The notes: generated by a model not told the origin, from the letters alone. A DNA stretch of 64,000 nucleotides from an uncultured Verrucomicrobiae bacterium (GCA_963764165.1 CAVXRD010000002.1:2432001-2496000); one strand, 5' to 3'; positions 41,001 to 58,516 are shown, counted from the first letter of the stretch. Made by a program: numbers and translations.

Positions 41001-42971
41001 TTAAGAGTCCAGGTGCAGAAGCTGCTCCCGAACGATGGACGCAATTTCATCATTGTCGGACAGACTGGGAGCAAGGATGCTTCGCAACCGGGTTCCGACC
41101 AATTCGAGGCTATCAATAGGCTCATTGAAAACCGTTTCCAATGCCAAAGGCGACACATGGCCAAACGTCGAGCAGTAGCTATGCGATCCGCAACCGGGGA
41201 ATATTCGCAAAATCGTGGCGATGGCCTCAAGCCAGAGTTCAAAGCTGATTTTATCGCGGGCTTGCGCAGGCGTCTCCCCTGAGCCGGCCAGAAAATGAGG
41301 GCTGATTAAATCCAGCAGGCGCGGCTGTTGCTTTGTTAAGGCCAGGAGCCGTTGCGCTGCGTCTCCCTTGAAAGGTTCGCTCCCCAGCAGGCGCGCCAGG
41401 CTGAGAACTTCGTCCAGGATGACGGGCAGATTGGTGGTGGAATTGGAAAGCAATGCGCGAACGGCGATCACGCCGACCGAGAATAAATCGCACGGTGAAC
41501 TCAGCAAAGGCCAGACTTCATACGGTGAGCGCGGGAAAGCTGTGCCCATGGCCCGCTTGAGGACTGCCAGGGTGCTGTCGCTGATTTTGGTTGGAATCGT
41601 CCGGAAACGCACTTCGCGGCTGCGAGAGCTGGTTGATTCGCTTGTGTAAACATGCGCATACAATTCCAGCCGCTCTTGCGCCAATGGCAGGCGAAACCAA
41701 AGCAAATCGTGGGGATCTAATGCCACATAATCTTCAGCCACAAGGCGTCCATCGAGCACCACCCCGTCGGTTTCGGCGGCCAGGCCACGGATGAATACGC
41801 TGCCCACGCCGGAAGATTGGGCGGCCAGCCCCTCCGGCAGGTAGGGCGAGGGCTCCGCCGAGCCCATGCGAATAAAGTAGCGCTGCTGGGTTGACGTGAT
41901 ATGGAGCGGAAAAGCCTGGCTGGGCTTGAGCAGCTTGCACTTTGCCGCCCACAGTGCCGGAAACAATTCGTTGGCTTCCGGCAGCGAAACGCAGAAGCTG
42001 GCGGGCGAAATGTTAAGCAGCGGCAATTGGTGAACTCGTATGCAATCCTGGACTTCGCGCATCATGTCCACTATGGCCGCCAGCTTCAGATAAAAAATCT
42101 CATTCAAGCGATCAGCGTGATCGCCGCCGCCAAAGCGCAAGAAAGGCAAGCCGCGGGCGCGCGAGGACCACTCTTCAAGACGTATATATGCTTTGACACC
42201 GAGCAGCCGCGTGGCCCAGGAATTGGCGCGGCCCGCATCCCATGGCTTTCCCTCAAGCACCTGGAAATAATCCTCCAATTCCAATGCATGAAACCGGCTT
42301 GCCTGAATCAATCCGGCGCACGGGTTAAAAACCACTGCCTCGGGGGCGCCGTCCTTCATCCGGTCCTTTGGCTGCACGTGTGAATTGGAAGGCGCCTCTT
42401 CCGTAAGGGCCAGGAAATTTGGGTGGCCGGCCCCGCCATCGAATAGATAGCGGTGCGGCGATTTCGTGTAGGCCGGGAGATTGCAGGACTCGAGCACGCC
42501 ATCATCCTTGCAAAGGCGCCAAGCCGAGCTTGTCACGGAGGCGAAACCTGCGCTATTGATGCGCCGGGGCTGGATAAGCAGGGGGCTTGGATTGGACGTT
42601 TCCAAGCCTGTTGTGAAGACAACATCGGGGCAGCGGGAAACACGGTCTTCGAATTCTTTGCGCCATCGCTGGTCGAAAGACGTGTTGGTCAATTGGCCCC
42701 GATAGTTGATCAACTCGGTATTGCGGAAATCAAGGGTTTGCACCCAAATCTCAAGCCAGTCAACGATCCGGCCGGACGCATCGGTGATCGCTCCCAGATA
42801 GACGCTGGCGCCGGGGATCTCGCGCAGGAGAACAAACCAATTTCCCAACGGGTCCGGCTCCGATCGGACCAGGACGCACATGGAGAGCGCGCCGACGCAA
42901 TCCGGTTGGATCGGCGCCAAAGAACAGCCTGACTCAGGCGGCAGGCGCTGCATCGAGTTTCCACTATCCAT
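41001..42971 (-). CDS. Hypothetical protein with degenerate protein-kinase-like motifs, divergent from the T6SS-like cluster
   Basis: Long ORF; LPLLNISPASF resembles a catalytic-loop position, SPYLPE resembles the APE region, CDLFSVGVI resembles subdomain IX. The fold is an inference; start uncertain (43007/42971/42953). Confidence 0.6.
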   Translation of the reverse strand: MDSGNSMQRLPPESGCSLAPIQPDCVGALSMCVLVRSEPDPLGNWFVLLREIPGASVYLGAITDASGRIVDWLEIWVQTLDFRNTELINYRGQLTNTSFDQRWRKEFEDRVSRCPDVVFTTGLETSNPSPLLIQPRRINSAGFASVTSSAWRLCKDDGVLESCNLPAYTKSPHRYLFDGGAGHPNFLALTEEAPSNSHVQPKDRMKDGAPEAVVFNPCAGLIQASRFHALELEDYFQVLEGKPWDAGRANSWATRLLGVKAYIRLEEWSSRARGLPFLRFGGGDHADRLNEIFYLKLAAIVDMMREVQDCIRVHQLPLLNISPASFCVSLPEANELFPALWAAKCKLLKPSQAFPLHITSTQQRYFIRMGSAEPSPYLPEGLAAQSSGVGSVFIRGLAAETDGVVLDGRLVAEDYVALDPHDLLWFRLPLAQERLELYAHVYTSESTSSRSREVRFRTIPTKISDSTLAVLKRAMGTAFPRSPYEVWPLLSSPCDLFSVGVIAVRALLSNSTTNLPVILDEVLSLARLLGSEPFKGDAAQRLLALTKQQPRLLDLISPHFLAGSGETPAQARDKISFELWLEAIATILRIFPGCGSHSYCSTFGHVSPLALETVFNEPIDSLELVGTRLRSILAPSLSDNDEIASIVREQLLHLDS

Positions 42972-43237: not shown

Positions 43238-43744
43238 ATGAAATCAACAAATTGCAAATTTCCTTGTCTCGTGACGGTCGTGCTGGCAGCTCTCCTTGGT
43301 GCTGGTTGTAAAACGCCCCTTCCCAAGCCTTTAACGCTTCAGATTAAAAAGACGGCGACAGGCTCGGTAGATGTTGATGTGGTTGGAGTCCAGCCGAGCG
43401 ACAAAGACCAATTAGCCAGCATGAAGCCCGATCAGTGGTGGATGCAGCCGCCCAACGACATCATCCGCAAAGGGTACGGTGACATGATGGTCACCACTAA
43501 TTTTAAGGATGGTGACACTTGGGTCATTGATCCAACCAACCCCATTTGGAGCAAGTGGTTGGGCGCGGGAGTTAAGGAGTTGATGGTCATCGCCGATCTG
43601 GATCGCGTGCATTTCAACGACAACTCTGATACGCGCCGGAAATTTGTCACCCTGTCGCCTTCCGCATGGCCGAAGGATCGGCGAGTCGAGATCCAGGTGC
43701 AGGACGGCCGGGTGTGGGTGATGACGCCAGAAGTCGCTAAATAG
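43238..43744 (+). CDS. Lipoprotein, TssJ-like
   Basis: Lipobox LLGAG-C; SVDVDVVGV...QLASMKPDQWW resembles the xVxVDxV...L..M....WF pattern of TssJ-type lipoproteins; 168 aa; heads a cluster containing tssKLM. Confidence 0.6.
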   Translation: MKSTNCKFPCLVTVVLAALLGAGCKTPLPKPLTLQIKKTATGSVDVDVVGVQPSDKDQLASMKPDQWWMQPPNDIIRKGYGDMMVTTNFKDGDTWVIDPTNPIWSKWLGAGVKELMVIADLDRVHFNDNSDTRRKFVTLSPSAWPKDRRVEIQVQDGRVWVMTPEVAK

Positions 43745-43822: not shown

Positions 43823-46780
43823 GTGCCAACTTTCGGAGAATATGAAACTATTGGCGAACCGGTTGCCTCGCAGGAAGATGCCGGCCACCAGTCAACCGTC
43901 TGGATAGCGAAGAAAAGCGGCCCTCAGGACGGGCGGTTCTACGCTGTTAAAGTCTTCACTCCACAGCAAGATTCCAAACCCCGCCCCGGCGGCCAATTGG
44001 AAGCGGATCTGGGGCTGGAGTTTCTCGAAGGGGTCAAGCTGGTCAAAAAGGCGCAAGGCGCCCAGCCGCAGTGGCTCACGCCGATCTATGGCTTCGCGCG
44101 CACTCCCGACGGACAGAGCGCCTGGTATGCAACCGACTTCTACGGCGATGCTGCCTCCCGGCTTTCGCGTTCGGCGCAGTCTTATATTTCCCGGGGCGGC
44201 AGGGTGGATGGGCCAGCCCTGCGGCGGATAGTTTACAGCATTGTGTCCGGATGTCTGTCTTTGCAGCGGTCTCGCGGTTATTCTCATGGCAATCTCAAGC
44301 CGGGCAACATTTTTCCTGTGGGCCGGCCACGTCCCTTGCGCAAGACGAATTTTCATCTGGCGGACGCCGCTGCGGTGGCCCCGGCCCAATTGGCTGGCGT
44401 GCGGCCTTCGGATCGCCAGACAGTCGACAAATTGCTCCAGCAAACAATTGAAGCCCGGGACTTGCGAGCCGTGGGAGAGTTGATTCTGCAATTGGTCGAA
44501 GGGCGGTTGGTGGCGAATAGCGACGATATTGATTATCCCATTCCCAACTCTGGAGCCTGGGAGCGTCTCGGCAAGGAACGGGAGGCATGGCGCACCCTGT
44601 GCAATCGGCTGATCGATCCTCAATTGTCGATTGAACAAGTCAACCTCGACCTCCTGGAAAGGCAGTTTCGCCCAAGCATTATCGATAACCAATTGCCGGT
44701 GATTATTGGCACGGTTTTCGTTGCCGCCCTCCTGGCTGGAGGAGGCTACCTGGGATGGAAGTCTTACGTTAAACACAAGGAAGAGATTGCGCGCAATGAT
44801 TCCCAGAAATACACGAATGCGCTGGAGCGGGCGAATACTGCGCTAGCCTCCAATGAACTTGACAGGGCGCTGGTTGCGGCGACCGAGGCCGAAACAATTA
44901 GGCCGGGGGATTCCGCCGCGGGAAATATTATAAGCCAGGTCAAGGAAGCGAAGAAGAAAACTACGGCCGCCGAGGCCGAGAGAGTTTATTCAGCGTCGAT
45001 GACCAAAGGGAATGCGGCTTTGGTAAAGTCCAATTTCCTAGTGGCGATTTCCGAATTCCAGAATGCGTTGAAGATCAAGGAGGGTGATCCTGATGCGGCG
45101 GCGGGCCTCAATGCAGCGCAAAAGGGGAGCGCGTATAACGACGCAGTCGCGGACGCCCGAAAAGCGCTGGAGTCGGGCGATTTCAACAGCGCGCAACAGG
45201 CGGCAGACAAAGCCAGAGGGATCAGGCCGAGCGGCGCCGAGGTCACTGAACTCGACAATCAGATAAAGGCCGATCGGCAAAAGGCTGCGGACTACGCTAT
45301 AGCACAGGGCAAGCTCAAGGAGGCCAATGAGTTAAAGAAGTTAGCTAACGCTCTTGCGCGGGCGAAGAAAGCGCTAGAGGCGAATGAACTTTCCGATGCC
45401 CTTGCCGCGGCGACCGAGGCCGAAACCATTAGGCCGGGGGATTCCGCCGCGGGAAATCTCATAAGCCAGATCAAGGAAGCGCAGAACAAGGAAGCAAAGA
45501 AGAAAACTACGGCCGCCGAGGCCGAGAGAGATTATTCTGCGTCAATGACCAAAGGGAATGCGGCTTTGGTAAAGTCCAATTTCCCAGTGGCGATTTCCGA
45601 ATTCCAGAATCCTGATGCGGCGGCGGGCCTCAATGCAGCGCAACAGGGGAGCGCGTATAACGATGCAGTCGCGGACGCCCGAAAAGCGCTGGAGTCGGGC
45701 GATTTCAACAGCGCGCAACAGTCGGCGGACAAAGCCAGACGGATCAGGCCGAGCGGTGCCGAGGTCACTAAACTCAACAATCAGATAATGGCCGATCGGC
45801 AAAAGGATGCGGACTATGTCGAAGCTATGAGCCGAGGAGAGGCCGCCTTGAAAAAATTCGAATACACGGCGGCGATTTCAAATTTCATCAATGCTGTGGC
45901 CTTGAACTATAAGCAAGATAATGCCAAAGCGCAGACCCAGCTTGAGAAGGCCAAAGATTCAGGGTGCGCTCATTTTGTCGAGCTCGGCCGAAGTGCGTTG
46001 CTCTCGGGTAATTCAGCCAAAGCGCTGGAGTATGCTTTGGAAGCCCAGAAATTTAAGGCGACCAGCCCCGAGGCAAGCAAACTCATTAATGATATCAATA
46101 GTCCACCGATACCGCCCGCGCCAATAACCAATGTAATTGCCGTAAATCCGCCGACTACAAATCCACCGCCCGCCCCAGTTGGCGCTCCTTTTGCGACCAA
46201 TATGATCGGAATTGATTTTCTATGGGAACCAACCATTGCAAAATATGTCGCCGCAACGGAACTTTCTCACCAACAATATACAAAGTTGTGCCAGGAAGCC
46301 GGCAAGAACCCCCAGCAGCAAGATGAGCCGGTGAGGCCCTACCAACCAGAGAAATTCGCCTCCCAGAAATTCGCGAAGCAATTTGCAGCCGACCTTGATG
46401 CTTTCGCTTTTTCCAAGACAAAGTGCCACCTGCGTCTGCCCTCGCTGGCGGACTACTGCACCTTGGCTGAAGTGGATATCAATGGCAATAAGCCGCATAT
46501 TTTGGATTTCGACAAAAAGAAAGATGATAAGGAGTTGGTTGAGTTCGCGACGCCCGATCCCGCAGACGTTAATTCTGGCCCAACGAATGATTATCATGGC
46601 TTGATATACTTGATTGGTAACGTCGCCGAATGGACGAGCGATTACGAAAACCCGTTTGGCAGTAGCTATGCGCACATCGGAAGTTCTGCCAAAATCACCC
46701 TGCTTCGAAAACCAAGTCCCGCCGAAACCGTTGGCGTTCGGTTGATTCTGGAACCCGAGCCGCAACAAGCACGAAATTAG
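43823..46780 (+). CDS. Ser/Thr pseudokinase - TM - TPR-like repeats - FGE-sulfatase-like domain (PpkA-like/TagR-like fusion)
   Basis: YAVKVF, HGNLKPGNI, LADAA, DLRAVGEL; TM VIIGTVFVAALLAGGGYLGW; helical repeats; C-terminal TNMIGIDF..ATELSHQQY..LRLPS..PTNDYHGL..LIGNVAEW..VGVRL. Confidence 0.8.
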   Translation: MPTFGEYETIGEPVASQEDAGHQSTVWIAKKSGPQDGRFYAVKVFTPQQDSKPRPGGQLEADLGLEFLEGVKLVKKAQGAQPQWLTPIYGFARTPDGQSAWYATDFYGDAASRLSRSAQSYISRGGRVDGPALRRIVYSIVSGCLSLQRSRGYSHGNLKPGNIFPVGRPRPLRKTNFHLADAAAVAPAQLAGVRPSDRQTVDKLLQQTIEARDLRAVGELILQLVEGRLVANSDDIDYPIPNSGAWERLGKEREAWRTLCNRLIDPQLSIEQVNLDLLERQFRPSIIDNQLPVIIGTVFVAALLAGGGYLGWKSYVKHKEEIARNDSQKYTNALERANTALASNELDRALVAATEAETIRPGDSAAGNIISQVKEAKKKTTAAEAERVYSASMTKGNAALVKSNFLVAISEFQNALKIKEGDPDAAAGLNAAQKGSAYNDAVADARKALESGDFNSAQQAADKARGIRPSGAEVTELDNQIKADRQKAADYAIAQGKLKEANELKKLANALARAKKALEANELSDALAAATEAETIRPGDSAAGNLISQIKEAQNKEAKKKTTAAEAERDYSASMTKGNAALVKSNFPVAISEFQNPDAAAGLNAAQQGSAYNDAVADARKALESGDFNSAQQSADKARRIRPSGAEVTKLNNQIMADRQKDADYVEAMSRGEAALKKFEYTAAISNFINAVALNYKQDNAKAQTQLEKAKDSGCAHFVELGRSALLSGNSAKALEYALEAQKFKATSPEASKLINDINSPPIPPAPITNVIAVNPPTTNPPPAPVGAPFATNMIGIDFLWEPTIAKYVAATELSHQQYTKLCQEAGKNPQQQDEPVRPYQPEKFASQKFAKQFAADLDAFAFSKTKCHLRLPSLADYCTLAEVDINGNKPHILDFDKKKDDKELVEFATPDPADVNSGPTNDYHGLIYLIGNVAEWTSDYENPFGSSYAHIGSSAKITLLRKPSPAETVGVRLILEPEPQQARN
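44876..45816 (+). repeat. Intragenic duplication of a TPR-like block
   Basis: 44876-45296 is repeated near-identically at 45407-45816, with a 24-nt deletion and a 15-nt insertion in copy 2. Confidence 0.9.
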
Positions 46781-46986
46781 CCGTGAGATCGATGGTCAAT
46801 AAGACAGATGCGCAGTCATTTGTAAAAAAGAGGACAAAACACTTGACGCCTCTCAGGGAATTCTACTACAAAAGCATCGTCTTCAGGATGATGTGCGTTG
46901 AGCAAGCACTGTCGCGGGTGTGACCGTAATATCCTGACGGTCAAGAATTAGCTGTTATGGGGCAACAGAGCAGAATAAGTCTAAAA

Positions 46987-49900
46987 ATGAAAAAACTACA
47001 TTTCAAGATCCTGGCTGTTTCAACGTTAGTTCTTGCCCCATCGGTATTTGCCAATCCTTTGGGGGGTATCGTTGCCAGCGGTAATGCCGCCATTCATCCC
47101 AGCGGGAGTCTTCTGACGATTACCCAAACCACGCCCACGGCCATCATCAACTGGAGTTCTTTCAACATTGGGGCGGGTCAGTCTACCATCTTCCAGTTCA
47201 CCGGCGCGGCCGGGGCCAATTCCTCGGTGCTCAACCGAGTCAATTCAACTAGCCCATCGGTTATTTCAGGTTTGCTGGAATCTACTTTCGGCCCCAAAGG
47301 GGCAATCGGCGGCACGGTGTTGGTGCTAAATCCTAATGGCATCCTTTTTAGCTCCACCGCAACTGTCAACGTCGGCAACCTGACCGCTTCTACTCTGGGC
47401 ATTTCGGATAGCGCGTATCTCAAGGGGGGAACCTTGTCGTTGGCCGGCGGTTCGACCGCTCCGGTCGTCAACGAAGGTTACCTTCATGCCTCGGGCGATA
47501 TTTTCCTGATTGCCAACAGTGTCCAGAACTCAGGTGCGATTGATGCCGGCAACACGGCGGGTCTAGCGGCCGGCAACAGTGTCACTCTCATGCAATCGGG
47601 TTTGGAGCGTCTCACTGTCAATGCCAGCCAGCCGGGCGGCGCGTCCACGGGCGTGAATAACACCGGCGCCATCCAGACGGCGGTGGCGGATCTGGCGGCC
47701 GCGGGAGGCAATATCTACGCGCTAGCCATTAATAATGGCGGCGTCGTGCGCGCCACCACTGTAACGGAATCGGGCGGACACATTTATCTGCAAGGCAATG
47801 GCGGCAAGGTTGTCAACTCCGGCACCTTGGATGCCTCGGCCACCAAGGGCGCGGGTGGCGCCGTTGAAGTCACCGGTGGCAATGTTTCTTTGACAAGCAG
47901 CAGCGTCATCAACGCCAGCGGCCCTTCCGCCGGCGGCACGGTGCTGGTGGGCGGTGGCTCCCACGGGACGGATTCATCGATTCCCGATGCCACTGCGACG
48001 ACGGTGGCCGCGGGCGCCACGATCAATGCCAGCGCCACCGCCGACGGCAACGGCGGCAACGTGGTTGTTTGGGGAAACAGCGATACCTTTGCGGGAAACG
48101 TTACCACCAAGGGCGGGGTTTCCGGGGGTAATGGCGGTCATGTGGAGGTTTCAGGGGATACGCTCGGTTTTAAGGGCATGGTTACCACAACTGCGCCCAA
48201 GGGCAGTTCAGGTATGTTGCTGCTGGATCCGGTTGACGAAACGATTGACAACAATCCTGCCGACGTAGGTGCTACTCAATGGAGCACTCTCATCGCCCAG
48301 AACACGCCTCAAACGATCACGGCCAACCATTTGACTCTTGAGGCCACACTGGGTGGCTCTCCTTCCGTTGATTTGGCTTCTGCCCAAAATTACACCTTTA
48401 TTGCGGAATCGACTCTCGTAGACACGGCGATTATAAAAAACACCCAAGCTACTTCTTCGACGACTCTGAGCCTTCAAAGCGGCGGCTCGATGACAATTAG
48501 CGGGGCAATCAACCTCGGCCCGACCGGGGGCACTCCGGTGGGCACAATAAGTTTGATGAGCGCTGGCAACGTTAGCATCGGAGCCGACCTGGCCGCTTCC
48601 ACTGTCAGCGTCCAATCCGGCTCCACGGGCCTGGGCGGGAACATTTCCTGGGCAGCCAACAACTTGACAGTCTCCGCTGACACCCAGATTTACCAGGCCG
48701 GCGACGCTGGCAGCACCACGTCATACGCGGATCTCAGCGGCAATGTGAGCGGGCACGCTCCCCAGTTCTTGAACGCGGCGGGCAACGACATACCATCATC
48801 GTTTGTATTCGAGCAAGACGCCGCTATTGGTGGGGCGGGCCAGACGCCGCTCCCGGCGATCACTCAGTTTGGCCCTTCGAGCAGCCCTGTCAGCAGCTTG
48901 GTCAATGCCTCGGCGAACCCAATGGCCTACACCGTCCAATCTGACGGAGGCGACGTAACGCTGGCAAGTGGCGTAGGGGCAAATGTGGCGGGGAGTGCCT
49001 TGACGTTGAACGCAAACGGAACAGTCAATCTCAATGACAGTCTCAATTTAGCGTCCCTCGGTGTCACTGGCCCGAGCATTAACTTCAACGGCGGCAGCGT
49101 GACCACGGTCGGTGGACAGATTTATAGCGGTGCGTCCACTTTGGTCAGCGACGAGGTCAATACTGGCACGACAATCAACTACACCGGGACAGTCGACGGG
49201 GGTTTCAGCCTGAAGGATATCGGCTCGACCACCTTCGGCGAAGCAGTGGGCGGGACGGCACCCCTAGCCTCGGTGACGGACACCGGAACGACGGCGATCA
49301 ACGGGGGGAGCGTGGCGACGAGCGGGGCGCAAACTTACAATGATCTAGTGACACTGGGAGCCAACACTGCATTGAACAGCGGGACCATTGAACTGGCCGG
49401 AGTGGCGGGAGCGGGCTTCAATTTGACGTTGAACAACACGGGCGCGGCGACCTTGAACGGAGTGGAGAGCGGGATCGGCACCCTGACGGCCTCAGCTAGC
49501 GCAGGCGCCTCGCTGACCGTGGACAACACAATTTCGGCCGGATCGCTGGTTGACAATCAAACCACGACGCTGAATGGCACGGGCGGCAGCGAGACCATCA
49601 CCACGACAGGCGGCGACCAGAATTACACTAAGACAGTGACGCTAGGAGCAAACACGACGCTGAACAGCGGGACCATTGAACTGGCCGGAGTGACGGGGGC
49701 AGGCTTCAATTTGACGTTGAACAACACGGGCGCGGCGACCTTGAACGGGGCGGAGAGCAGCGTCGGCACCCTGACGGCCTCGGCCAGCCCAAGTGCCTCG
49801 CTGACCGTGGATAACACAATTTCGGCCGGATCGGTGGTTGACAATCAAGCCACGACGCTCAACGGCACGGGCGGCAGCGAGACAATAACCACCACGGGCG

Positions 49901-52900
49901 GCGACCAGGATTACACCAAGACAGTGACCTTGGGTGCCAACACGACGCTGAATAGCGGGACCATTGAACTGGCCGGGGTAACGGGTGCAGGCTTCAATTT
50001 GACGTTGAACAACACGGGCGCGGCGACCCTGAACGGAGCGGAAACCGCCGTCGGCACCCTGACGGCCTCAGCCAGCCCGGGTGCATCGTTGACGGTGGAC
50101 AACACAATTTCGGCTGGATCGCTGGTTGACAATCAAACCACGACGCTGAATGGCACGGGCGGCAGCGAGACCATCACCACGACAGGCGGCGACCAGAATT
50201 ACACCAAGACAGTGACGCTAGGAGCAAACACGACGCTGAACGGCGGGACCATTGAACTGGCCGGAGTGACGGGGGCAGGCTTCAATTTGACGTTGAACAA
50301 CACGGGCGCGGCGACCTTGAACGGGGCGGAGAGCAGCGTCGGCACCCTGACGGCCTCGGCCAGCCCAAGTGCCTCGCTGACCGTGGATAACACAATTTCG
50401 GCCGGATCGGTGGTTGACAATCAAGCCACGACGCTCAACGGCACGGGCGGCAGCGAGACAATAACCACCACGGGCGGCGACCAGGATTACACCAAGACAG
50501 TGACCTTGGGTGCCAACACGACGCTGAATAGCGGGACCATTGAACTGGCCGGGGTAACGGGTGCGGGCTTCAATTTGACGTTGAACAACACGGGCGCGGC
50601 GACCCTGAACGGAGTGGAAACCGCCGTCGGCACCCTGACGGCCTCAGCCAGCCCGGGTGCATCGTTGACGGTGGACAACACAATTTCGGCTGGATCGCTG
50701 GTTGACAATCAAACCACGACGCTGAATGGCACGGGCGGCAGCGAGACGATCACCACGACAGGCGGCGACCAGGATTACACCAAGACAGTAACGTTGGGAG
50801 CCAATACGGTGTTGGGTGGTGCTACCATTGAACTTTCCGGAGTGACGGGGGCAGGCTTCAATTTGACGTTGAACAACACGGGCGCGGCGACCTTGAACGG
50901 GGCGGAGAGCGGCGTCGGCACCCTGACGGCCTCAGCCAGCCCAAGTGCCTCGCTGACTGTGGATAACACAATTTCGGCCGGATCGGTGGTTGACAATCAA
51001 GCCACGACGCTCAACGGCGCAAGCGGCAGCGAGACCATAACCACCACGGGCGGCGACCAGGATTACACCAAGACAGTGACCTTGGGTGCCAACACGACGT
51101 TGAATAGCGAGACTATTGAACTGGCTGGCGTGGCTGGGGCAGGCTTCAATTTGACGTTGAACAACACGGGCGTGGCGACATTGAACGGAGCGGAGAGTGG
51201 GTTGGGGGCTTTGACCGCCAACGGCACTGGAAGCTTGGTGGTGAACAACACGATTGCCGGAGCGTCGGTGAGCGACAACGAAATCACGGCGCTGAGTGGC
51301 GGCAGCGTGGCGACGACAGGAACGCAGACCTACAGTGACGCCGTGACATTGGGAGCCAATGATGTGCTGACCAGCACCGGGACGGGAGTGGCTGGAAACA
51401 TCACGTTTGCCTCGCCTGTGAATGGAGCCGACAGCCTGACGGTGAACACATCTGGAACTACGACCTTTAGCGGGGCGGTGGCTGTTCAGAGCCTGACAGT
51501 GGACCAGAGCGACACCCTTGGAAGCATTGCTTTGAATGGCGGGGCAGTCACGACCACGACCGGGCAGACGTATGACGCTGCGGTGACGTTGGGAGCCAAC
51601 ACAGTGTTGAAGGATACAGGAACTGGAGCGATCACGTTTGGCCCGTCGGCGACGATAACAGGGACGAGCGAGACGCTGGACGTGGAAACCACAGGAGCCA
51701 CGGCGGCAACCTTTGGGGGGGCGGTGAATGTTCAGAGTCTGACAGTAGAGCAGAGTGACACCCTCGGAAGCATTGCTTTGAATGGCGGATCGGTCACGAC
51801 CACGGCCGGCGGGCAGACGTATGGCGGCGCGGTGACTCTGGGCGGAAACACTGCGGAAACTTTGACAGCCGGAACAGTAACCTTCGGCGGGCCGGTGAGC
51901 GAGGCGAGCGGCCAGAACAATAACCTGACGGTCGGCGGCGCGCTAATCGTTAACGGCGGCAGTGTCAACACCGGCACAGGCAATCAAACTTATGGCAGCA
52001 CCGTGACTGGCAGTGGTGATGTGGCGCTCACCGGGGGCGCCTTGCAGGTCACTGGCGCCTTCACCGCGCCAAACGGAACTCTTACGGCAAACGGCGCGCT
52101 GACCGCAGGGAATATCGTATCTGCCCAAAATGTCGGTCTGACCACAGCCACTATTGCTGGCGATTTAACCGCGACGACAGGAAGCGTCGGTTCAAGCGGG
52201 ACGATCAGCGCACAAAACATTTCAGCCAGTCAAGCCATCGACGTGGGTGGCATTGGCAACAGCGGTAATGTCACTGCCGGAACGAGCGTAACTGTGAACG
52301 GTTCAGCCAACTTGACTGGAGCGCTGACAGCCACCGCGGGCAGTGTGGCCACTGGTAATGTAAATGCGGCGTTGATTACCGCCGCGACCGGGGTATCGGT
52401 GAACGGGAACGCCACCGTTACCGGCGCAATCTCCTCAACGACTGGCAATTTAGCCGTCGGCGGGGCCAACAACACAGTTCAAGCTGGCTCGGTCACAGCC
52501 ACGGCAGGCAGCGTGAGTTTGACAGGAACAACGACCACGGGAGCTGTCACCGCAGGCGAGAATGTCAATTTGACTGGCACCACCACGGCGACAACGATTA
52601 GCACCGGATCCAGCGGAAGCATCGCGTCAAGCGGTGGAAATCTGACGGCCAGCGCTTTGATGGCTGGCGAGGGAATTACAACCGGGAACGCGAACGTCAG
52701 CGGCGTGATCAATGCCGGCAATGGCGGATTGTCCGCACCGGGCGCCACAATCAGCGCCTCGTCCATCTCGGCTGGAACCAGCGTTACGACCGGGAACGTC
52801 ACCGCAGGCTCCATTGCGGCGGGAACAGGGGTGACAGTGGCCGGGAACGCCACCGTTACCGGCGCAATCTCCTCAACGACTGGCAATTTAGCCGTTGGCG

Positions 52901-54261
52901 GGGCCAACAACTCGGTTCAAGCTGGCTCGGTCACAGCCACGGCAGGCAGCGTGAGTTTGACAGGAACAACGACAACGGGTGCCGTGACCGCTGGCGAGAA
53001 TATCAATTTGACCGGCACCACCACGGCGACAACGATTAGCACCGGATCCAGCGGAAGCATCGCGTCAAGCGGTGGAAATCTGACGGCCAGCGCTTTGATG
53101 GCTGGCGAGGGAATTACAACCGGGAACGCGAACGTCAGCGGCGTGATCAATGCCGGCAATGGCGGATTGTCCGCACCGGGCGCCACAATCAGCGCCTCGT
53201 CCATCTCGGCTGGAACCAGCGTTACGACCGGGAACGTCACCGCAGGCTCCATTGCGGCGGGAACAGGGGTGACAGTGGCCGGGAACGCCACCGTTACCGG
53301 CGCAATCTCCTCAACCGCTGACAATATAACCGTCGGCGGGGCCAACAACACAGTTCAAGCGGCCTCGATCACCGCCCCGGGAGGCAGCGTGAATTTGACA
53401 GGGACGACGACCACGGGAATCGTCCACGCTGGCGGGAATGTGAATTTGACCGGCAGCACCACGGCGACCGCGATCAGCGCCGGATCCAGCGGAAGCGTCA
53501 CGTCAAGCGGTGGAAGTCTGGCTGCGAGTTCCATCGCGGCGGGAAGAGGGGTGTCAGTGGCCGGGAACGCTACCGTTACCGGCGCAATCTCCGCAACGGC
53601 TGGCAACGTAGTCCTCGGCGGGGCCAATAGCATAGTCCGTGCTGGTTCGATCACCGCCTCATCGGGCAATGTGAATTTGACAGGAACAACGACGATCGGC
53701 AACACCGCCGCCAGCGGGAGTATCAATGCGAACGGCGCGGAGAACCTCACCGGAGTGGTGCATGCCGGAAGCGGCCCCCTGAGCTTGGACAATGTGACGG
53801 TTACAGGCTCTGCGACGCTGGAATCGGGTGCCAGCGGCAATAGTCCAATCACAATCAATGGAAATCTGACGACGCAAAAGGGCTCGACGTTGCAAATCGA
53901 CAATCCTTTAACGATCGATGGCACCGTCGACGCTGCGGGCACCACGACCACGCTTACGCCATTCATTACATTAAATAGCACGGTCGCACCGACATTTAAT
54001 TTCAATCTCCAGCAAGACCTTGTGGTGGCTGGCGCGCCAGGACCGCACCTCACAGTCATCGGCAACGGGCACACGTTCACATATGAGGACATCAACTTGA
54101 ACCAAATCGGCGAATTCGCTGAAGACTCTCTGGGTGAACTGGGGCCGCGCATCAGACGGGGCCAGGCGGCAAAGGTTGAAGTCAAGCCTGGCCAGGGAAA
54201 ACAATATCCGGCGATGATTCCGGAACTGAGCAGTTTCCCATCCTACCCGGGCAACCGATGA
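46987..54261 (+). CDS. Two-partner secretion passenger TpsA (filamentous haemagglutinin/HMW1-like beta-helical protein)
   Basis: Signal peptide MKKLHFKILAVSTLVLAPSVFA-NPLGG; TPS domain INWSSFNI, VLNRV, LNPNGILF; GGHVEVSG, LLLDP; long G/T/S/N/A-rich repeats. Confidence 0.93.
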   Translation: MKKLHFKILAVSTLVLAPSVFANPLGGIVASGNAAIHPSGSLLTITQTTPTAIINWSSFNIGAGQSTIFQFTGAAGANSSVLNRVNSTSPSVISGLLESTFGPKGAIGGTVLVLNPNGILFSSTATVNVGNLTASTLGISDSAYLKGGTLSLAGGSTAPVVNEGYLHASGDIFLIANSVQNSGAIDAGNTAGLAAGNSVTLMQSGLERLTVNASQPGGASTGVNNTGAIQTAVADLAAAGGNIYALAINNGGVVRATTVTESGGHIYLQGNGGKVVNSGTLDASATKGAGGAVEVTGGNVSLTSSSVINASGPSAGGTVLVGGGSHGTDSSIPDATATTVAAGATINASATADGNGGNVVVWGNSDTFAGNVTTKGGVSGGNGGHVEVSGDTLGFKGMVTTTAPKGSSGMLLLDPVDETIDNNPADVGATQWSTLIAQNTPQTITANHLTLEATLGGSPSVDLASAQNYTFIAESTLVDTAIIKNTQATSSTTLSLQSGGSMTISGAINLGPTGGTPVGTISLMSAGNVSIGADLAASTVSVQSGSTGLGGNISWAANNLTVSADTQIYQAGDAGSTTSYADLSGNVSGHAPQFLNAAGNDIPSSFVFEQDAAIGGAGQTPLPAITQFGPSSSPVSSLVNASANPMAYTVQSDGGDVTLASGVGANVAGSALTLNANGTVNLNDSLNLASLGVTGPSINFNGGSVTTVGGQIYSGASTLVSDEVNTGTTINYTGTVDGGFSLKDIGSTTFGEAVGGTAPLASVTDTGTTAINGGSVATSGAQTYNDLVTLGANTALNSGTIELAGVAGAGFNLTLNNTGAATLNGVESGIGTLTASASAGASLTVDNTISAGSLVDNQTTTLNGTGGSETITTTGGDQNYTKTVTLGANTTLNSGTIELAGVTGAGFNLTLNNTGAATLNGAESSVGTLTASASPSASLTVDNTISAGSVVDNQATTLNGTGGSETITTTGGDQDYTKTVTLGANTTLNSGTIELAGVTGAGFNLTLNNTGAATLNGAETAVGTLTASASPGASLTVDNTISAGSLVDNQTTTLNGTGGSETITTTGGDQNYTKTVTLGANTTLNGGTIELAGVTGAGFNLTLNNTGAATLNGAESSVGTLTASASPSASLTVDNTISAGSVVDNQATTLNGTGGSETITTTGGDQDYTKTVTLGANTTLNSGTIELAGVTGAGFNLTLNNTGAATLNGVETAVGTLTASASPGASLTVDNTISAGSLVDNQTTTLNGTGGSETITTTGGDQDYTKTVTLGANTVLGGATIELSGVTGAGFNLTLNNTGAATLNGAESGVGTLTASASPSASLTVDNTISAGSVVDNQATTLNGASGSETITTTGGDQDYTKTVTLGANTTLNSETIELAGVAGAGFNLTLNNTGVATLNGAESGLGALTANGTGSLVVNNTIAGASVSDNEITALSGGSVATTGTQTYSDAVTLGANDVLTSTGTGVAGNITFASPVNGADSLTVNTSGTTTFSGAVAVQSLTVDQSDTLGSIALNGGAVTTTTGQTYDAAVTLGANTVLKDTGTGAITFGPSATITGTSETLDVETTGATAATFGGAVNVQSLTVEQSDTLGSIALNGGSVTTTAGGQTYGGAVTLGGNTAETLTAGTVTFGGPVSEASGQNNNLTVGGALIVNGGSVNTGTGNQTYGSTVTGSGDVALTGGALQVTGAFTAPNGTLTANGALTAGNIVSAQNVGLTTATIAGDLTATTGSVGSSGTISAQNISASQAIDVGGIGNSGNVTAGTSVTVNGSANLTGALTATAGSVATGNVNAALITAATGVSVNGNATVTGAISSTTGNLAVGGANNTVQAGSVTATAGSVSLTGTTTTGAVTAGENVNLTGTTTATTISTGSSGSIASSGGNLTASALMAGEGITTGNANVSGVINAGNGGLSAPGATISASSISAGTSVTTGNVTAGSIAAGTGVTVAGNATVTGAISSTTGNLAVGGANNSVQAGSVTATAGSVSLTGTTTTGAVTAGENINLTGTTTATTISTGSSGSIASSGGNLTASALMAGEGITTGNANVSGVINAGNGGLSAPGATISASSISAGTSVTTGNVTAGSIAAGTGVTVAGNATVTGAISSTADNITVGGANNTVQAASITAPGGSVNLTGTTTTGIVHAGGNVNLTGSTTATAISAGSSGSVTSSGGSLAASSIAAGRGVSVAGNATVTGAISATAGNVVLGGANSIVRAGSITASSGNVNLTGTTTIGNTAASGSINANGAENLTGVVHAGSGPLSLDNVTVTGSATLESGASGNSPITINGNLTTQKGSTLQIDNPLTIDGTVDAAGTTTTLTPFITLNSTVAPTFNFNLQQDLVVAGAPGPHLTVIGNGHTFTYEDINLNQIGEFAEDSLGELGPRIRRGQAAKVEVKPGQGKQYPAMIPELSSFPSYPGNR
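49335..51200 (+). repeat. Tandem 288-nt (96-aa) repeats in tpsA, about 6.5 copies
   Basis: Unit VTLGANTTLNSGTIELAGVTGAGFNLTLNNTGAATLNG...GGDQ.YTK; shadow ORFs recur every 288 nt. Confidence 0.95.
52405..53700 (+). repeat. Tandem 438-nt (146-aa) repeats in tpsA, two full copies plus shorter derivatives
   Basis: GGGAACGCCACCGTTACCGGCGCAATCTCC at 52405, 52843, 53281 and a variant at 53563. Confidence 0.9.
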
Positions 54262-54279
54262 TTGGGCTTAATCCAAGCT

Positions 54280-56181
54280 ATGATAAAATTCAAATCTCAC
54301 TTGGCCCATGCGGCTATTTTGGTTGCATGCGGCTTCCTGACAACATTTCTCGCACCCAATCGCCTTTTTGGCCAGACCAATAGCATGGGAGGGGGGCACG
54401 GCTTGCCCGAAGGCAATCCGATAACAAAATTGCGTGGAATAATTATTTTGCCCACTTATGCGCAGGCAGCCTCCGGCGCGGGGGTAACTGGACCCGGCGG
54501 CGTTGCGGAGCGGGTCCAGCGGAAAATTCAGCAGATCACAGACCCAAAGATCACAAATGCGGTCGGGATTGTCGTGGTCGCCCCGGAATTTCTCAGCACC
54601 AGCGAGTTTATCCGCCGGTTGCAGCCATTCCTGGATAAGCCACTTACCGATGCCAGTCTGGCAGCGATACAATTCCGGATTCGGGACTATTGCAAGTCGC
54701 ACGGTCATTTGATCGTCGACGTGATTACCCCGGAGCAGGATGTTGTCAACCAAGTCATCCGCATTGCCGTGGTGGAGGGCGAATTGGCGCACCTTAAGGT
54801 TACCCAGCTTGGCAAGCGCTGGTTTGCCGATTCAATCCTAATCAAGGGAGCGGACTTCAAGACAAACGCGCCCGTTCTCGAGGGCCAATTGAACAGCGGG
54901 CTGGTTTGGGTCAACAATAATACCTACCAGAGCCTCGGGGTGGACGCCTTTAGCGGAACGTTTCGCGACGTGAGCGCCAGTTTCTCGCGAGGGGAGGATA
55001 TTGGCCACACGGATATTGACCTGCGCGCGCAGGAACGGTTCCCATTGCGTGTATTTGCCGGCTACGATGATTCAGGGATCACGGCCATCGGCGAGGACCA
55101 GTTTTTCGGCGGACTGACATGGGCCAACGCGTTTGGCTTGGATCACCGCGCCTCATACACATACCTGACGGATGCCAATCTGAATCGCCTGCAGCAGCAT
55201 AGCGGCAGTTACGCGATTCCATTGCCCGGCCACCAGCTCTTTACGATCTACGGAGCCTTCGCGAACTTGAACCCAGACTTTTCTGACATTCCCGAGGCAA
55301 GCAATCTGAGGCAGAAGGGTCAATATTACCAGTTGACAGCGCGTCATCTGCTCGCGCTTCCGTCGCTGGGGAATTACGATCATTCGCTGACATTTGGTTT
55401 TGACTACAAGAACACCGATACGCCGCTGTTGTTTACGGCTTCAACCGCGTCGACCATTTTGCAAACGAATCGTGTCCAGGTAAATCAGTTCAGCCTCGAA
55501 TATGCCGGGCGTCTCAAGGACCATTTCGGAACGACTGGCTTCAATTTGCAGGGCGTCTACAGCCCGGGCGGTTTGACTGAAAATGACGACACTGCCGAGT
55601 ATGACACGTTTCGGCGGGGAACGACCGCGCATTACTTATATGGACGGGCCGTGCTTCAGCGCGAGACATTGCTGCCACTCAGCCTCCCGGGGTCGATGGG
55701 TTCCATCGAGCCGCGGAAATTCACATGGTTTTTCAAGGCCTCTGGTCAGTTTACGGACAATCGTCTGATAACGACAGAGCAGCTCGGCCTGGGCGGTTTT
55801 GACACGGTAAGAGGCTACGACGAGCGAATCGTGGAAGGTGATTTCGGTTATTTGATAAACAACGAATTGCGCGCGCCGCGAATTAAGCTTGGCAATCTGA
55901 CGCGGCAGGCCAATCACCAGGACTGGATGCAGGCGGTGCTTTTTTGCGATTATGGATCGGCTTACAACCAGCGCGCGAATTCCGCCCTGTTGGAGTCCTA
56001 TCATCAGGAGTTGACTTCCCTGGGTGTGGGTTTGCGTTATGAAGTGGCGGATAACTTGCGTTTTCGATTTGATTATGGATTTCAACTCTCGCGGTCCTAC
56101 GCGACCACCGCGCCGGACGCCACTTCGTTGGGCAAGCAGCCTTCATCTCGCGCCAATTTCGGCGTTGAGTTGAGTTTTTGA
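54280..56181 (+). CDS. TpsB transporter (ShlB/FhaC/HecB family, Omp85 superfamily)
   Basis: Signal peptide; POTRA-like region (Y...GH....VITPEQD....IRIAVVEG); GYDDSG; LGGFDTVRGYDE loop motif; C-terminal Phe. Confidence 0.93.
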   Translation: MIKFKSHLAHAAILVACGFLTTFLAPNRLFGQTNSMGGGHGLPEGNPITKLRGIIILPTYAQAASGAGVTGPGGVAERVQRKIQQITDPKITNAVGIVVVAPEFLSTSEFIRRLQPFLDKPLTDASLAAIQFRIRDYCKSHGHLIVDVITPEQDVVNQVIRIAVVEGELAHLKVTQLGKRWFADSILIKGADFKTNAPVLEGQLNSGLVWVNNNTYQSLGVDAFSGTFRDVSASFSRGEDIGHTDIDLRAQERFPLRVFAGYDDSGITAIGEDQFFGGLTWANAFGLDHRASYTYLTDANLNRLQQHSGSYAIPLPGHQLFTIYGAFANLNPDFSDIPEASNLRQKGQYYQLTARHLLALPSLGNYDHSLTFGFDYKNTDTPLLFTASTASTILQTNRVQVNQFSLEYAGRLKDHFGTTGFNLQGVYSPGGLTENDDTAEYDTFRRGTTAHYLYGRAVLQRETLLPLSLPGSMGSIEPRKFTWFFKASGQFTDNRLITTEQLGLGGFDTVRGYDERIVEGDFGYLINNELRAPRIKLGNLTRQANHQDWMQAVLFCDYGSAYNQRANSALLESYHQELTSLGVGLRYEVADNLRFRFDYGFQLSRSYATTAPDATSLGKQPSSRANFGVELSF

Positions 56182-56230
56182 CGAGGTGATAGCTGGTCTC
56201 GAATGGGCAAACGTTTGACTGCAGATATCC

Positions 56231-57148
56231 ATGTCGCGACTCAGCGAACAAGAATCAAAACAAGTTAATGATCTAGCCTCTCGCCTGCGGTTGATTCAGG
56301 CGGATAGCGCTTTTGCATCAGCGGAAAAGCGGCGGGATTATCTTCAGGAAGAACTCGCCCGATCGGTGAATACGGTGTCCGGGGCCGCGCGCAAAGACTT
56401 CCTGGCCGCGTTGTTGTGCCGATTCCCTGTCGGGGGCCAGATTCTCCAAGCCAAACCCGCTGCCGCCGCCGTACCTGCTCCGCCTTCGCCCCCGCCTCCG
56501 CCTTTGACTTCGGACGAATTGCTGGAAAAGTTCATTGCCAGCGCCAGTCAATTGCCAGCCGACAGGCGGGCTGCCTTCTCAGAACGGCTTGGCCGGGCCG
56601 GATTTGCGTGGGCCGATAAGGCGGCCATTGAACTCGATGTTGGCTCTGAATTGCGGCAACGACTCGGCCTGAAGCCCGAGCAAAAAGTGAAATTGACGCG
56701 CTTAGTCCAAGTGGTGATTCTCCTGGCTGAACGCGTGTCCCAGCTCGAGCAAGCCACTTTCAAGACCTGGGGCGAATTGAAAAAAGCAGGCCAGGCCAAG
56801 CGTTCCGCCGAATTTCGAGCAGCCGCAGCCCTGTATTTAGCGGGCGAGGACGACTCATTGGAGGCGCTTATGCAGGGCTTGGTTGCGCTGGTGGCGGCCC
56901 TGCAGGCTGCGATGCTGCGCGCCACCGTCGAGTTTGAGCGGGAATTGATCGTTCGCCTGGGGCCCCAGCAGATCGAGAATTTGGTGACCGAAGAGGGTGG
57001 CGTCGGATTTCTCAAGAATAAAGGGGAGCGGTTGTGGAAAAAATACGCTGAATTGGCCGCGGATTTTACAACCCCGGGAGTCATTGATCGGCAAGTGAAA
57101 GACCTTTATGTGAAGACCGTGGAGGCTGCCATGCGGGGCAACCGGTAA
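56231..57148 (+). CDS. TagH/Fha C-terminal-domain-like protein without an FHA domain
   Basis: LQAAMLRA....ELIVRLGPQQIE......GFLKNKGERLWKKYAEL resembles the helical C-terminus of TagH; directly upstream of tssK; no FHA motif visible. Confidence 0.55.
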   Translation: MSRLSEQESKQVNDLASRLRLIQADSAFASAEKRRDYLQEELARSVNTVSGAARKDFLAALLCRFPVGGQILQAKPAAAAVPAPPSPPPPPLTSDELLEKFIASASQLPADRRAAFSERLGRAGFAWADKAAIELDVGSELRQRLGLKPEQKVKLTRLVQVVILLAERVSQLEQATFKTWGELKKAGQAKRSAEFRAAAALYLAGEDDSLEALMQGLVALVAALQAAMLRATVEFERELIVRLGPQQIENLVTEEGGVGFLKNKGERLWKKYAELAADFTTPGVIDRQVKDLYVKTVEAAMRGNR

Positions 57149-57154
57149 TTCCGT

Positions 57155-58516
57155 ATGCAAATCCATTGGCACGAAGGTCTGTTCCTGCAGCCGCACCACT
57201 TGCAAACAATGCAGAGGGATGCAATGCAGGAGATCCGAACGCTGAGGTCGTTGATTTTTCCCTTCAGTTTCGGGATCGTGGAGAGCAGGCTTTCTTACGA
57301 TGATTTGGCGGACGGGCGAATTCGCTACGAACGCCTGCGGGCCGTCATGCCCAGCGGATTGGAGGTTTCATTTCCAGACGACGCCTCCCTTCCGGCGCTG
57401 GACATCAAGGCCGAATTAGCTCGCAGTTCCAGCGCATTTGAAGTGCTTCTGGCGGTTCCGCTCTGGGCGAAAAACCGGGCCAACTCATTTCGAACCGGGG
57501 ATCGTCCCGATCCGCGGGTCAAATTGCTTTATGTTCCGTCTGAGACGGCTCAGGTCATGGACGAGAATACGGGGGACAATCCGCAGACCATAATTGTGCG
57601 CAAGGTAAATGCGCGCATCGCCGTCAAAGGGGATGACTTGTCGGATATGGAGTGGCTGCCTCTGCTGCGTGTGCAGCGCGCGACCGGCGCCGAGAATGCC
57701 AAGGCCCAGCCGGATCCGGAGTTTGTCCCTCCATCGCTTCTCTTGTGCTCCGCACCCATTCTGCACGAAATGATGCGCGAGCTGGTTGCCCAGCTCAACG
57801 CCTGCCGCAAGGATTTGCGCATCAAGGTGGCGACGGGCGGGCTGGCATTGGAGATGAAATGGGAATTAACCATGAAGCTCGCCACGCTCAACAGAGTGTG
57901 CGGGAGTTTGCCCGCGCTGGTCGACGAGGGCAAAGCGCCGCCGTTTGCGATTAACCTTCGATTGCGTGAATTGCTGGGTGAACTGGTTGCCTTGCAGCCG
58001 CAAAAGACCACCTTCGAGTGCGAGGCTTATGATCACCTTAACCCTTACCGTTCCTTCAAGGAGCTGGACCAAAAGATCAGGGAGTTGATTCGAGTGACCA
58101 AAGGCACGCCTCCCAAAACCGTTCTTTTTACCGGCAACCCGGGGCTGTTGCGGGCGGAGTTGCAGCCGGCGGACTTCAGCACTCCCACCGCCTACTATTT
58201 GGGGGTGCAAACCCAGGCCGACCGAACCAAACTGGCCCTCTACCTTAGCGACGGCAACAAGTTCAAGCTGATGCCGCGCAGCATGGAGCAAGTGGCCATC
58301 CTTGGGCTGGAGCTCAAAGAGGAGAATTACCCGCCGCTGGATTTGCCTGCGGTCAATAATTTGATTTATTTCCGCCTCGTTCCCTCCAGCAATGTGCGCC
58401 GCTGGGATCAAATGCGGCAGGACAACGCCGTATCCTTGGTTTGGAACAACGCGGAGTTTAATTTGAGCGGAGCCACGTTTACCCTGTACATGATTCTTCC
58501 CTCGGGGGCCGTATGA
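57155..58516 (+). CDS. tssK: Type VI secretion baseplate subunit TssK
   Basis: IHWHEGLFLQPHHLQ, FSFGI, AVMPSG, DPEFVPPSL, YDHLNP..SF, PP.DLP....LIYFRL. Confidence 0.9.
   Translation: MQIHWHEGLFLQPHHLQTMQRDAMQEIRTLRSLIFPFSFGIVESRLSYDDLADGRIRYERLRAVMPSGLEVSFPDDASLPALDIKAELARSSSAFEVLLAVPLWAKNRANSFRTGDRPDPRVKLLYVPSETAQVMDENTGDNPQTIIVRKVNARIAVKGDDLSDMEWLPLLRVQRATGAENAKAQPDPEFVPPSLLLCSAPILHEMMRELVAQLNACRKDLRIKVATGGLALEMKWELTMKLATLNRVCGSLPALVDEGKAPPFAINLRLRELLGELVALQPQKTTFECEAYDHLNPYRSFKELDQKIRELIRVTKGTPPKTVLFTGNPGLLRAELQPADFSTPTAYYLGVQTQADRTKLALYLSDGNKFKLMPRSMEQVAILGLELKEENYPPLDLPAVNNLIYFRLVPSSNVRRWDQMRQDNAVSLVWNNAEFNLSGATFTLYMILPSGAV

Follow-up and report, generated by a model that had tools for sequence, protein, structure and literature searches.

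Among the described systems closest to the one reported here is the threonine-phosphorylation pathway of the T6SS (type VI secretion system), which comprises TagQRST-PpkA/TagE, PppA/TagG, Fha/TagH and TagF and is known from the Pseudomonas H1-T6SS, Agrobacterium and Serratia (review PMC13584744). The FGE domain of TagR, the activator of PpkA, binds PpkA (PMC13713981), the Fha C-terminal domain from Vibrio cholerae and Acidovorax drives condensates and membrane association (PMC13389060; 10.1101/2023.12.21.572528), and the FHA end of V. cholerae Fha binds TssL (PMC13389060). Here we describe a T6SS cluster in a 64,000-nt stretch (the window, with positions counted from its first letter) of the genome of an uncultured Verrucomicrobiae bacterium (GCA_963764165.1 CAVXRD010000002.1:2432001-2496000; genome of 7.0 Mb, 97% complete). 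In this T6SS subtype the positions that kinase and phospho-reader usually hold are taken by a conserved pseudokinase of the membrane and by a TagH-like protein without FHA, and we consider the chances somewhat better than even that assembly is gated by direct binding and not by threonine phosphorylation.

Like the threonine-phosphorylation pathway, the cluster has a membrane kinase-fold protein with which an FGE domain is associated, a TagH-like gene beside tssK, and TagF following tssM. Unlike it, it has no catalytic Asp, DFG, activation segment, FHA domain or PppA, the FGE domain forms part of the kinase-fold protein and in many cases of TagF as well, and two further genes, encoding the conserved protein X668 and a methyltransferase, are present; by their defining sequence features the two central proteins are not members of PpkA or of the FHA-bearing TagH. 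The short Fha of V. cholerae and the Acidovorax Fha have an FHA-free helical C-terminal domain, which the TagH-like protein weakly matches and which in those species promotes assembly without PpkA or PppA; in V. cholerae the FHA-bearing long form is essential, whereas for the present subtype a search of 36 genomes returned no TagH with an FHA domain and a new helical bundle is present instead. EssB/YukC of the type VII secretion system (T7SSb) is likewise a membrane pseudokinase in an antibacterial secretion system, and YukC binds its partner without phosphorylation (10.1101/2020.05.09.085852). The locus differs from it in being a T6SS and not type VII, in having no FHA domain in the cluster, and hence no counterpart of the FHA-bearing partner EssC, and in keeping the ATP/Mg residues, whereas YukC binds degenerate FHA domains and not ATP; by analogy the present system appears to work like EssB/YukC without being a member of it. 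Finally, the Acinetobacter TSA-type T6SS keeps TagF and has no Fha or threonine-phosphorylation pathway (10.64898/2025.12.08.692957), just as TagF is retained here without an active kinase-phosphatase pair or FHA domain; unlike the present locus, it has TagN, TagX, TslA, TsmK and TagZ and neither a pseudokinase nor a TagH remnant. The main text of that source makes no mention of Planctomycetes, Verrucomicrobia, FGE or pseudokinases, and its supplements may hold such loci. No published description of this T6SS variant was found in full-text literature searches, which reached few subscription papers; the variant in post-translational control is real, conserved across two phyla and apparently undescribed.

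The features central to the analysis are the following (position in the window, strand, description):

43823..46780, +, full kinase-like open reading frame (ORF), 985 aa
43823..44680, +, pseudokinase domain, residues 1-286: K43 retained, HGN loop, DAA, no Gly-rich loop, no APE
44699..44755, +, one membrane-spanning helix, predicted for pseudokinase residues 293-311 (hydropathy scan)
44756..46780, +, predicted periplasmic part: TPR-like helical repeats and C-terminal FGE-sulfatase-like (TagR-like) domain
56231..57148, +, FHA-less TagH-like protein, 305 aa: bundle at 6-64, Pro linker, helical middle, T6SS_FHA_C-like end at ~195-280
62812..64000, continuing past the window end, +, TagF-like domain, transmembrane helix, TPR-like repeats and FGE-like domain, 828 aa

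A membrane kinase-fold protein without catalytic motifs

The motifs read by the first-pass annotation, which was made from the sequence alone, are all borne out by the ORF translation: the catalytic loop is HGNLKPGN (44285-44308), the AVK lysine (K43, 43949-43951) is kept, DAA (44363-44371) replaces DFG and the Gly-rich loop (GxGxxG) is absent. Moreover, the activation segment is abnormal and the 985-aa protein has no APE motif. Neither Pfam nor NCBIfam returned a kinase match for this protein; the kinase fold is supported by the family profile (StkP, E 4.6e-13; ULK1, E 3.6e-6), which also has NPR1 and TYK2 chains among its weak matches, by the structure model (pLDDT 85.9; Foldseek match MEK1, E 3e-9) and by profile-profile comparison with 13 kinases of the same genome (probability 99.4). 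Alignment of the homologues (64 unique domains from 68 matches) showed that the altered loop is a family trait: the catalytic Asp remains in only 3 domains, while 54 have Asn at this position, 4 have Lys, and Ser, Gln and Ala occur once each. An intact DFG was found in 0/64 domains, GxGxxG in 1/64 and an APE-like motif in 1/64. Between the Asp of DFG and that of alphaF lie 12-33 residues (median 17), with 33 for the window protein, whereas five canonical kinases encoded by this genome have 40-49 (one further kinase was mis-matched at 122 and seven were unmeasurable). The residues of the ATP/Mg site are retained, i.e. the beta3 Lys in 60/64 domains, the loop Asn in 61/64 and the DFG Asp in 61/64, while the alphaC Glu is not, and the invariant residues concentrate in the C-lobe.

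In HER3 and JAK JH2 the catalytic Asp is likewise replaced by Asn, the nucleotide-site Lys, Asn and Asp are kept and ATP is bound (PMC4718504), and HGN/DPG and HGN/DYG motif types have been tabulated (PMC2754085). With its catalytic motifs lost, the kinase-like protein can be classed from its sequence as a pseudokinase, a more cautious label than the 'dead' of the first-pass annotation; as Lys, Asn and Asp are kept, like in these ATP-binding proteins, nucleotide binding is probable. The combination of Asn for the catalytic Asp with retained beta3 Lys, loop Asn and DFG Asp is shared with HER3, JAK JH2 and the kinase-homology domains of receptor guanylyl cyclases; unlike those, the present family is bacterial, has no APE motif at all and is tied to a secretion machine, and the likeness in sequence is best read as convergence.

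The first-pass annotation saw writer and reader as degenerated, a description that does not hold: in the one pair compared (L058 vs L059) the kinase domain has a dN/dS of 0.07 and the TagH-like gene one of 0.13, against 0.11 for tssM, and by these substitution ratios both genes are maintained under purifying selection and not decaying. Local pseudogene decay is ruled out by the family conservation together with dN/dS.

Hydropathy, Pfam and synteny predict an inner-membrane anchor and a periplasmic domain for this protein encoded in a T6SS cluster. The FGE match of the window protein (PF03781, E 1e-3) is below the cut-off, and FGE was detected in 6/12 homologues tested; the tails differ by lineage, consisting of TPR/FGE or of Ig-like repeats. 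The tail of the window pseudokinase and that of its TagF-like protein are paralogous (BLASTP, 28% over 405 aa, E 1e-26). As for the label 'PpkA-like', the architecture and the position stand, whereas PpkA (chain 5hnv, E 6e-7) matches the family profile more weakly than StkP (5e-13), ULK1 and PknA, and in a kinase tree with long branches, which did not include PpkA itself, the family forms its own long-stemmed clade apart from two proteobacterial T6SS-linked kinases. 'PpkA-like' is accordingly used here of architecture and position only. Very large fusions, in which a zinc ribbon and TPR repeats precede the pseudokinase and Ig-like repeats, were observed at L129:18155-21346, L180:10429-16998 and L124:17499-20582; the L129 protein has a second kinase domain ahead of the pseudokinase, with a G-loop and DFG, but with HRN (Asn for the catalytic Asp).

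A TagH-like protein with a helical bundle in place of FHA

The 305-aa protein encoded before tssK weakly matches T6SS_FHA_C (E 0.003; 17.8 bits, with the cut-off set at 23.7) and TIGR03354 (E 0.015). That it resembles only the TagH C-terminus, as first proposed, is correct as far as the weak match at its C-terminal end and the lack of FHA are concerned, and incomplete in that residues 6-64 form a conserved three-helix bundle in an all-helical structure model; this bundle is the best-conserved part of the family (14 columns at ≥80%). Comparison of profiles (hhalign) with four canonical TagH proteins favoured the similarity, with probabilities of 67 and 81 (E 5e-5 to 1e-5) over residues 194-280 (~80 columns) and controls <1, whereas fold searches with the model gave generic helical matches only. 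Weak T6SS_FHA_C matches were obtained for 23/68 proteins of the locus set described below (none above the cut-off) and for 13/20 in the first alignment, consistently on the same portion of PF20232, and 3/7 homologues carry a precomputed PF20232 label. In our judgement, TagH ancestry of the protein is highly probable. The Caballeronia plasmid cluster (L188) has the same order tagH-tssK-tssL-tssM-tagF, with a phosphatase and a kinase. Its annotated TagH (L188:9616-11973) begins too late, as the frame is open for ~390 codons further upstream and contains the FHA domain.

No FHA domain was detected in the TagH-like proteins, either in the Pfam scan of the locus set (0/68, nine being left out as already scanned, split or cut) or in the first alignment (0/20). 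In the window the gap to the tpsB stop is just 49 nt, so that no FHA domain can hide upstream of the TagH-like gene, and a hidden upstream FHA or a mis-called start was ruled out by this gap together with longest-ORF scans. The FHA loss noted in the first-pass annotation thus extends to the family, and is not loss alone: on alignment and structure model, FHA has been replaced by the new three-helix bundle. There is no conserved phospho-acceptor Thr, no Thr column reaching 50% in 102 TagH-like sequences; one column is Ser in 74/102 of these and Ala in the window protein. The family comprises 849 representatives at 50% clustering, and the best 150 of these span 189-430 aa.

Phosphatases, FHA proteins and kinases near the cluster

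Small local profiles found no PP2C or FHA in the window or the next 36 kb, in agreement with the earlier statement that the window lacks a PppA-like phosphatase. There was also no PP2C in the fetched loci, using a local profile from three sequences that did detect the Caballeronia L188 phosphatase. With the Pfam PP2C model, 16/27 genomes have PP2C genes, none of them <47 kb from the locus. The genome of the window holds 25 Pkinase, 4 FHA and 3 PP2C matches, the closest FHA being ~156 kb off and every PP2C being located on other contigs. Instead of the active kinase, FHA protein and phosphatase that might have been encoded just downstream, there is a lone CHASE2 kinase with an intact HRD, which lies ~9 kb past vgrG beside an ECF-sigma-like gene, with unrelated genes between. 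No full-length TagH above the NCBIfam cut-off was found in 36 genomes, in which 34 weak matches are limited to the FHA end, and a canonical TagH elsewhere in these genomes was rejected on that basis. An FHA match in G317, considered as a neighbour of L129, turned out to be located on another contig. The loss of catalytic motifs, FHA and cluster phosphatase coincides across two phyla.

Distribution in Verrucomicrobiota and Planctomycetota

To avoid circularity, loci were gathered with TssK, a query on which the state of kinase and FHA has no bearing; the TagH-like alignment has no conserved stretch that could have served instead. The locus set consists of the best 80 of 545 confirmed TssK matches, labelled Verrucomicrobiota, Planctomycetota, Lentisphaeria or unclassified, among which the nearest TssK relatives of the window carry Verrucomicrobiia or Limisphaerales labels. 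The TagH-like gene is immediately 5' of tssK in all 77 loci with upstream DNA (median gap 41 nt), the contig ending at tssK in the other three. Within the order it is present in 15/301 genomes (four of 19 raw matches, in G041, G063, G101 and G169, were dropped as short or Pro-rich), and 14 of these 15 have the pseudokinase. The pseudokinase was also found in 37/50 further genomes with a TagH-like locus; most of the 50 had been picked for the lack of a visible pseudokinase in the locus as fetched, and many are incomplete. With the exception of one clade discussed below, the TssK tree largely splits the two phyla. We conclude that this is a conserved subtype common to Verrucomicrobiota and Planctomycetota and not local decay; FHA loss on TagH is universal in the sample, while the pseudokinase, though common, can be dispensed with, and other inputs may have been adopted in a few lineages.

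Some loci lacking the pseudokinase have a cNMP-binding protein behind X668 (L085:5422-6903, L092:4999-6429 and L108:1584-3086), which in L085 includes a methyltransferase-like domain. G013 has the entire locus in a strongly diverged form (L193-L195), with a 395-aa TagH-like ORF that lacks FHA and an HGN pseudokinase in an ORF that stops before its tail.

TagF-like protein, X668 and methyltransferase

The TagF-like proteins retain the motifs GK (57 of 58 homologues), DF (57) and SxDxxGR (53), residues that are required for Fha binding in Agrobacterium and Pseudomonas (PMC5995506), although their scores against TIGR03373 are below the cut-off (E 0.086 in the window). At least 699 aa long in 24/58 cases, they end in FGE in 6/7 long forms tested.

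X668 is a soluble 656-aa protein of a conserved, unassigned family (41001..42971, minus strand), present in 46/50 genomes of the Planctomycetota-Verrucomicrobiota-Chlamydiota (PVC) superphylum and, within the order, in 15/15 TagH-like-positive genomes compared with 5/286 others. In the four of those five whose loci were fetched, X668 was found three times amid T6SS genes and once as an orphan; the orphan copy, in G150, precedes a 4951-aa ORF. ESM Atlas features place the protein close to Pkinase clusters (0.95), while hhalign aligns the alphaF motif only (probability 40); there was no PDB sequence match, no significant similarity to the pseudokinase profile and no Pfam label on the 120 listed of 149 homologues. 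As a lead from these sequence comparisons, X668 is possibly a second, more divergent kinase-fold protein and pseudokinase.

Just past the window end (L001:6353-7915, minus strand) lies a methyltransferase gene with MethyTransf_Reg and PKMT C-terminal domains. A PF10119 methyltransferase is present in 11/15 TagH-like-positive genomes and in 4/286 others of the order, two of these four being beside hcp. MTS/DUF7059/DUF7782 methyltransferases come after tagF in L085 and L102.

Proposed mechanism

Complex modelling of the pseudokinase domain with the TagH-like protein, which the first-pass annotation had suggested, gave a score of 0.58 against 0.02 for the best control, with runs agreeing in at least 81% of contacts and a partner pLDDT of at least 73. 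The pass mark is reached by 116/157 solved complexes and by 2/215 mismatches, and because the range up to 0.60 holds just 18 solved complexes together with both mismatches, the result is a weak pass; it weakly indicates that the pseudokinase binds the TagH-like protein and raises the odds of this modestly. Since the catalytic residue and the phosphate-reading domain are both lost, contact between the proteins themselves is the likely trigger of assembly. What survives of the phosphorylation-independent scaffold pathway proposed at first is the coincidence of the losses, joined by this weak complex prediction, whereas degeneration, the labels 'PpkA-like' and 'dead', the loss of FHA without replacement and the matching of the pair as obligate had to be corrected.

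In the mechanism that we propose, the periplasmic FGE-like domains would respond to a cue from the envelope or from cell contact by clustering the receptor, which would thus resemble a PpkA that carries its activator TagR in the same chain. The pseudokinase domain, probably ATP-Mg-bound, would then serve as an allosteric docking site which binds the TagH-like protein, competing with the inhibitor TagF and drawing the TagH-like protein off it. The C-terminal helices of the TagH-like protein, modelled on the Fha C-terminal domain of Vibrio and Acidovorax, would nucleate the TssL-TssM complex and the baseplate, and the system would be reset by release and TagF recapture, so that under this proposal a phosphatase would be unnecessary. 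A bolder version, which we think rather unlikely, is a superphylum-wide swap of the T6SS phospho-switch, in which two pseudokinases, one a HER3/JAK-like membrane protein that binds ATP and the other soluble (X668), would dock directly on the FHA-less TagH via the new helical module, opposed by a paralogous TagF-FGE receptor and with a PKMT-like methyltransferase giving the covalent mark for which other systems use phosphorylation.

Several observations weigh against gating by direct binding. A strong pseudokinase match was not found in 13/50 genomes that keep the TagH-like locus, so that the losses first described as matched coincide across two phyla without the pair being obligate. Six of these 13 form one TssK clade (support 0.84), and L115 has no pseudokinase although it is on a 5.2-Mb contig; the pseudokinase-negative loci retain the bundle and X668, and the bundle must therefore have another partner too. 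In V. cholerae the FHA-less Fha isoform alone cannot start assembly (PMC13389060), and because of this, and of the binding of TssL by the FHA end there, the bundle likely took over the job of that end. HER3 and JAK2 JH2 show weak activity despite the Asn (PMC4718504), 3/64 domains of the present family still have the catalytic Asp (with the next Lys gone and DP instead of DFG), and the same loops of TagF function in Acinetobacter without Fha (10.64898/2025.12.08.692957). Two FHA-type proteins are encoded between tagF and tssA at L103:17106-20299 (Victivallales), in a genome with no strong pseudokinase match. L102 has an HRN kinase-like gene adjoining X668, and intact HRD/DFG kinases lie 2-7 kb from cluster genes in L084, L085/L173 and L102/L177, in genomes that are kinase-rich. 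Lastly, the TagH-family match is under the Pfam cut-off in all 68 proteins scanned and visible in just 23, and in a direct profile search of 552 ORFs one canonical TagH was recovered at E 0.015 with a sigma-54 regulator, a chance match, ranked higher.

Alternative explanations

The pseudokinase and the TagH-like protein could be fixed structural parts of the membrane complex without any relay, the hub deriving from a generic PVC kinase as in EssB/YukC; such an origin would make the two losses independent and not matched. The lack of a specific PpkA link, the subclade without a pseudokinase and a cluster lipoprotein that is too divergent to be called TssJ and fits a rebuilt membrane complex all agree with this, as does the YukC membrane pseudokinase hub, which binds FHA domains without phosphorylation (10.1101/2020.05.09.085852). 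YukC, however, is unable to bind ATP, whereas the ATP/Mg residues are retained here, and the TagR-like periplasmic tail, its duplication on the inhibitor TagF and the variation of tails among lineages, as seen for sensor inputs, do not fit a purely structural role, which we regard as unlikely.

Phosphorylation could still be in control, through weak activity of the HGN kinase or an unlinked kinase, with an unlinked FHA protein as reader. The kept Lys, Asn and Asp and the low activity of HER3 and JAK2 JH2 would allow this, and candidates are at hand in the Pkinase, FHA and PP2C matches of the window's genome, in the FHA proteins of L103 and in the second kinase domain (G-loop, DFG, HRN) behind which the L129 pseudokinase is fused; however, FHA and PP2C genes do not track the locus, the pseudokinase has no activation segment or APE for holding a substrate, and the TagH-like family offers no conserved Thr, making continued phospho-control distinctly improbable.

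A further possibility is that the 305-aa protein is an unrelated helical adaptor in the TagH position, its weak C-terminal match being due to convergence. While the Pfam matches are below the cut-off, the direct search ranks TagH behind a chance match, just ~80 columns align and the fold searches are uninformative, convergence would not easily place the weak matches always on the same part of PF20232, for which 3/7 homologues are labelled, nor give an hhalign probability of 81 against controls <1 in a gene order as in L188, and we consider such an adaptor very improbable. Least probable of all, with a very slight chance in our estimate, is that methylation replaced phosphorylation, the PKMT-like methyltransferase marking a T6SS part and the bundle or X668 reading the mark: the enrichment of PF10119 in positive genomes, its position beside hcp in two of the four others, the PKMT C-terminal domain and the other methyltransferase types of pseudokinase-less loci fit this, but the PF10119 genomes are kin and not independent, the gene was not found in 4/15 positives, and its target may equally be Hcp, a surface protein or a small molecule.

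Other genes of the cluster

The first half of the T6SS cluster occupies the window from 41001 on, and the remainder past the window end comprises tssA, the methyltransferase gene, tssB, tssC, hcp, tagJ, tssE, tssF, tssG, clpV and vgrG. Of the T6SS-i core, TssA, B, C, E, F, G, K, L and M, Hcp, ClpV and VgrG are encoded together, with Hcp, TssA and TssM just or clearly under the NCBIfam cut-offs at strong E-values. The remaining genes within the window are:

43238..43744, +, 168-aa lipoprotein, probable TssJ stand-in from its lipobox and position
46957..54261, +, TpsA protein resembling filamentous haemagglutinin; cargo that varies among loci (TIGR01901 above cut-off)
54262..56181, +, TpsB transporter with POTRA and ShlB/FhaC domains (PF03865 and PF08479 above cut-off)
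57155..58516, +, tssK (PF05936 and TIGR03353 above cut-off)
58513..59205, +, tssL, short form (PF09850 above cut-off)
59206..62793, +, tssM (PF14331 above cut-off; TIGR03348 E 1e-77, below cut-off)

The lipoprotein gene sits immediately 5' of the pseudokinase gene in most loci and Cys24 is invariant in 19/19 homologues, while a Pfam/NCBIfam scan of the protein gave no match. Its alignment with two canonical TssJ proteins is limited to the lipobox, too little to tie it to TssJ by sequence. TpsA-like genes occur in 7/80 loci and the two-partner secretion pair in 7-8/80, other large surface proteins filling the slot elsewhere; the presence of this pair inside the T6SS operon (46957-56181) hints at a link to adhesion or contact. 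The predicted effector region of the window's cluster (L001:17705-19916 and L002:11-4437) contains a small ORF that weakly matches Ntox46, a protein with a pesticin-like lysozyme domain, a VgrG with a C-terminal extension and DUF6931. Upstream of the cluster (30881-37000) are genes which we take, from their sequences, to encode a PRC-barrel/BON-like protein, general-stress-like small proteins, a Kup-like potassium transporter and a HAD hydrolase.

Significance

T6SS activation has so far been understood mainly via the PpkA-Fha-PppA phospho-switch, and the role of the FHA domain in Fha is a standing question; a natural version that is both FHA-free and phosphatase-free, and that is kept in Verrucomicrobiota and Planctomycetota, sets apart what kinase and scaffold do beyond catalysis and opens these roles to testing. 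The locus also adds unannotated T6SS accessory families, i.e. the TagH-like protein, X668, the lipoprotein, the TagF-FGE fusions and the methyltransferase, which standard models miss or under-score. Furthermore, it adds a family of bacterial membrane pseudokinases with a predicted HER3/JAK-type ATP site and, after EssB/YukC, a second case of a secretion system built around a pseudokinase.

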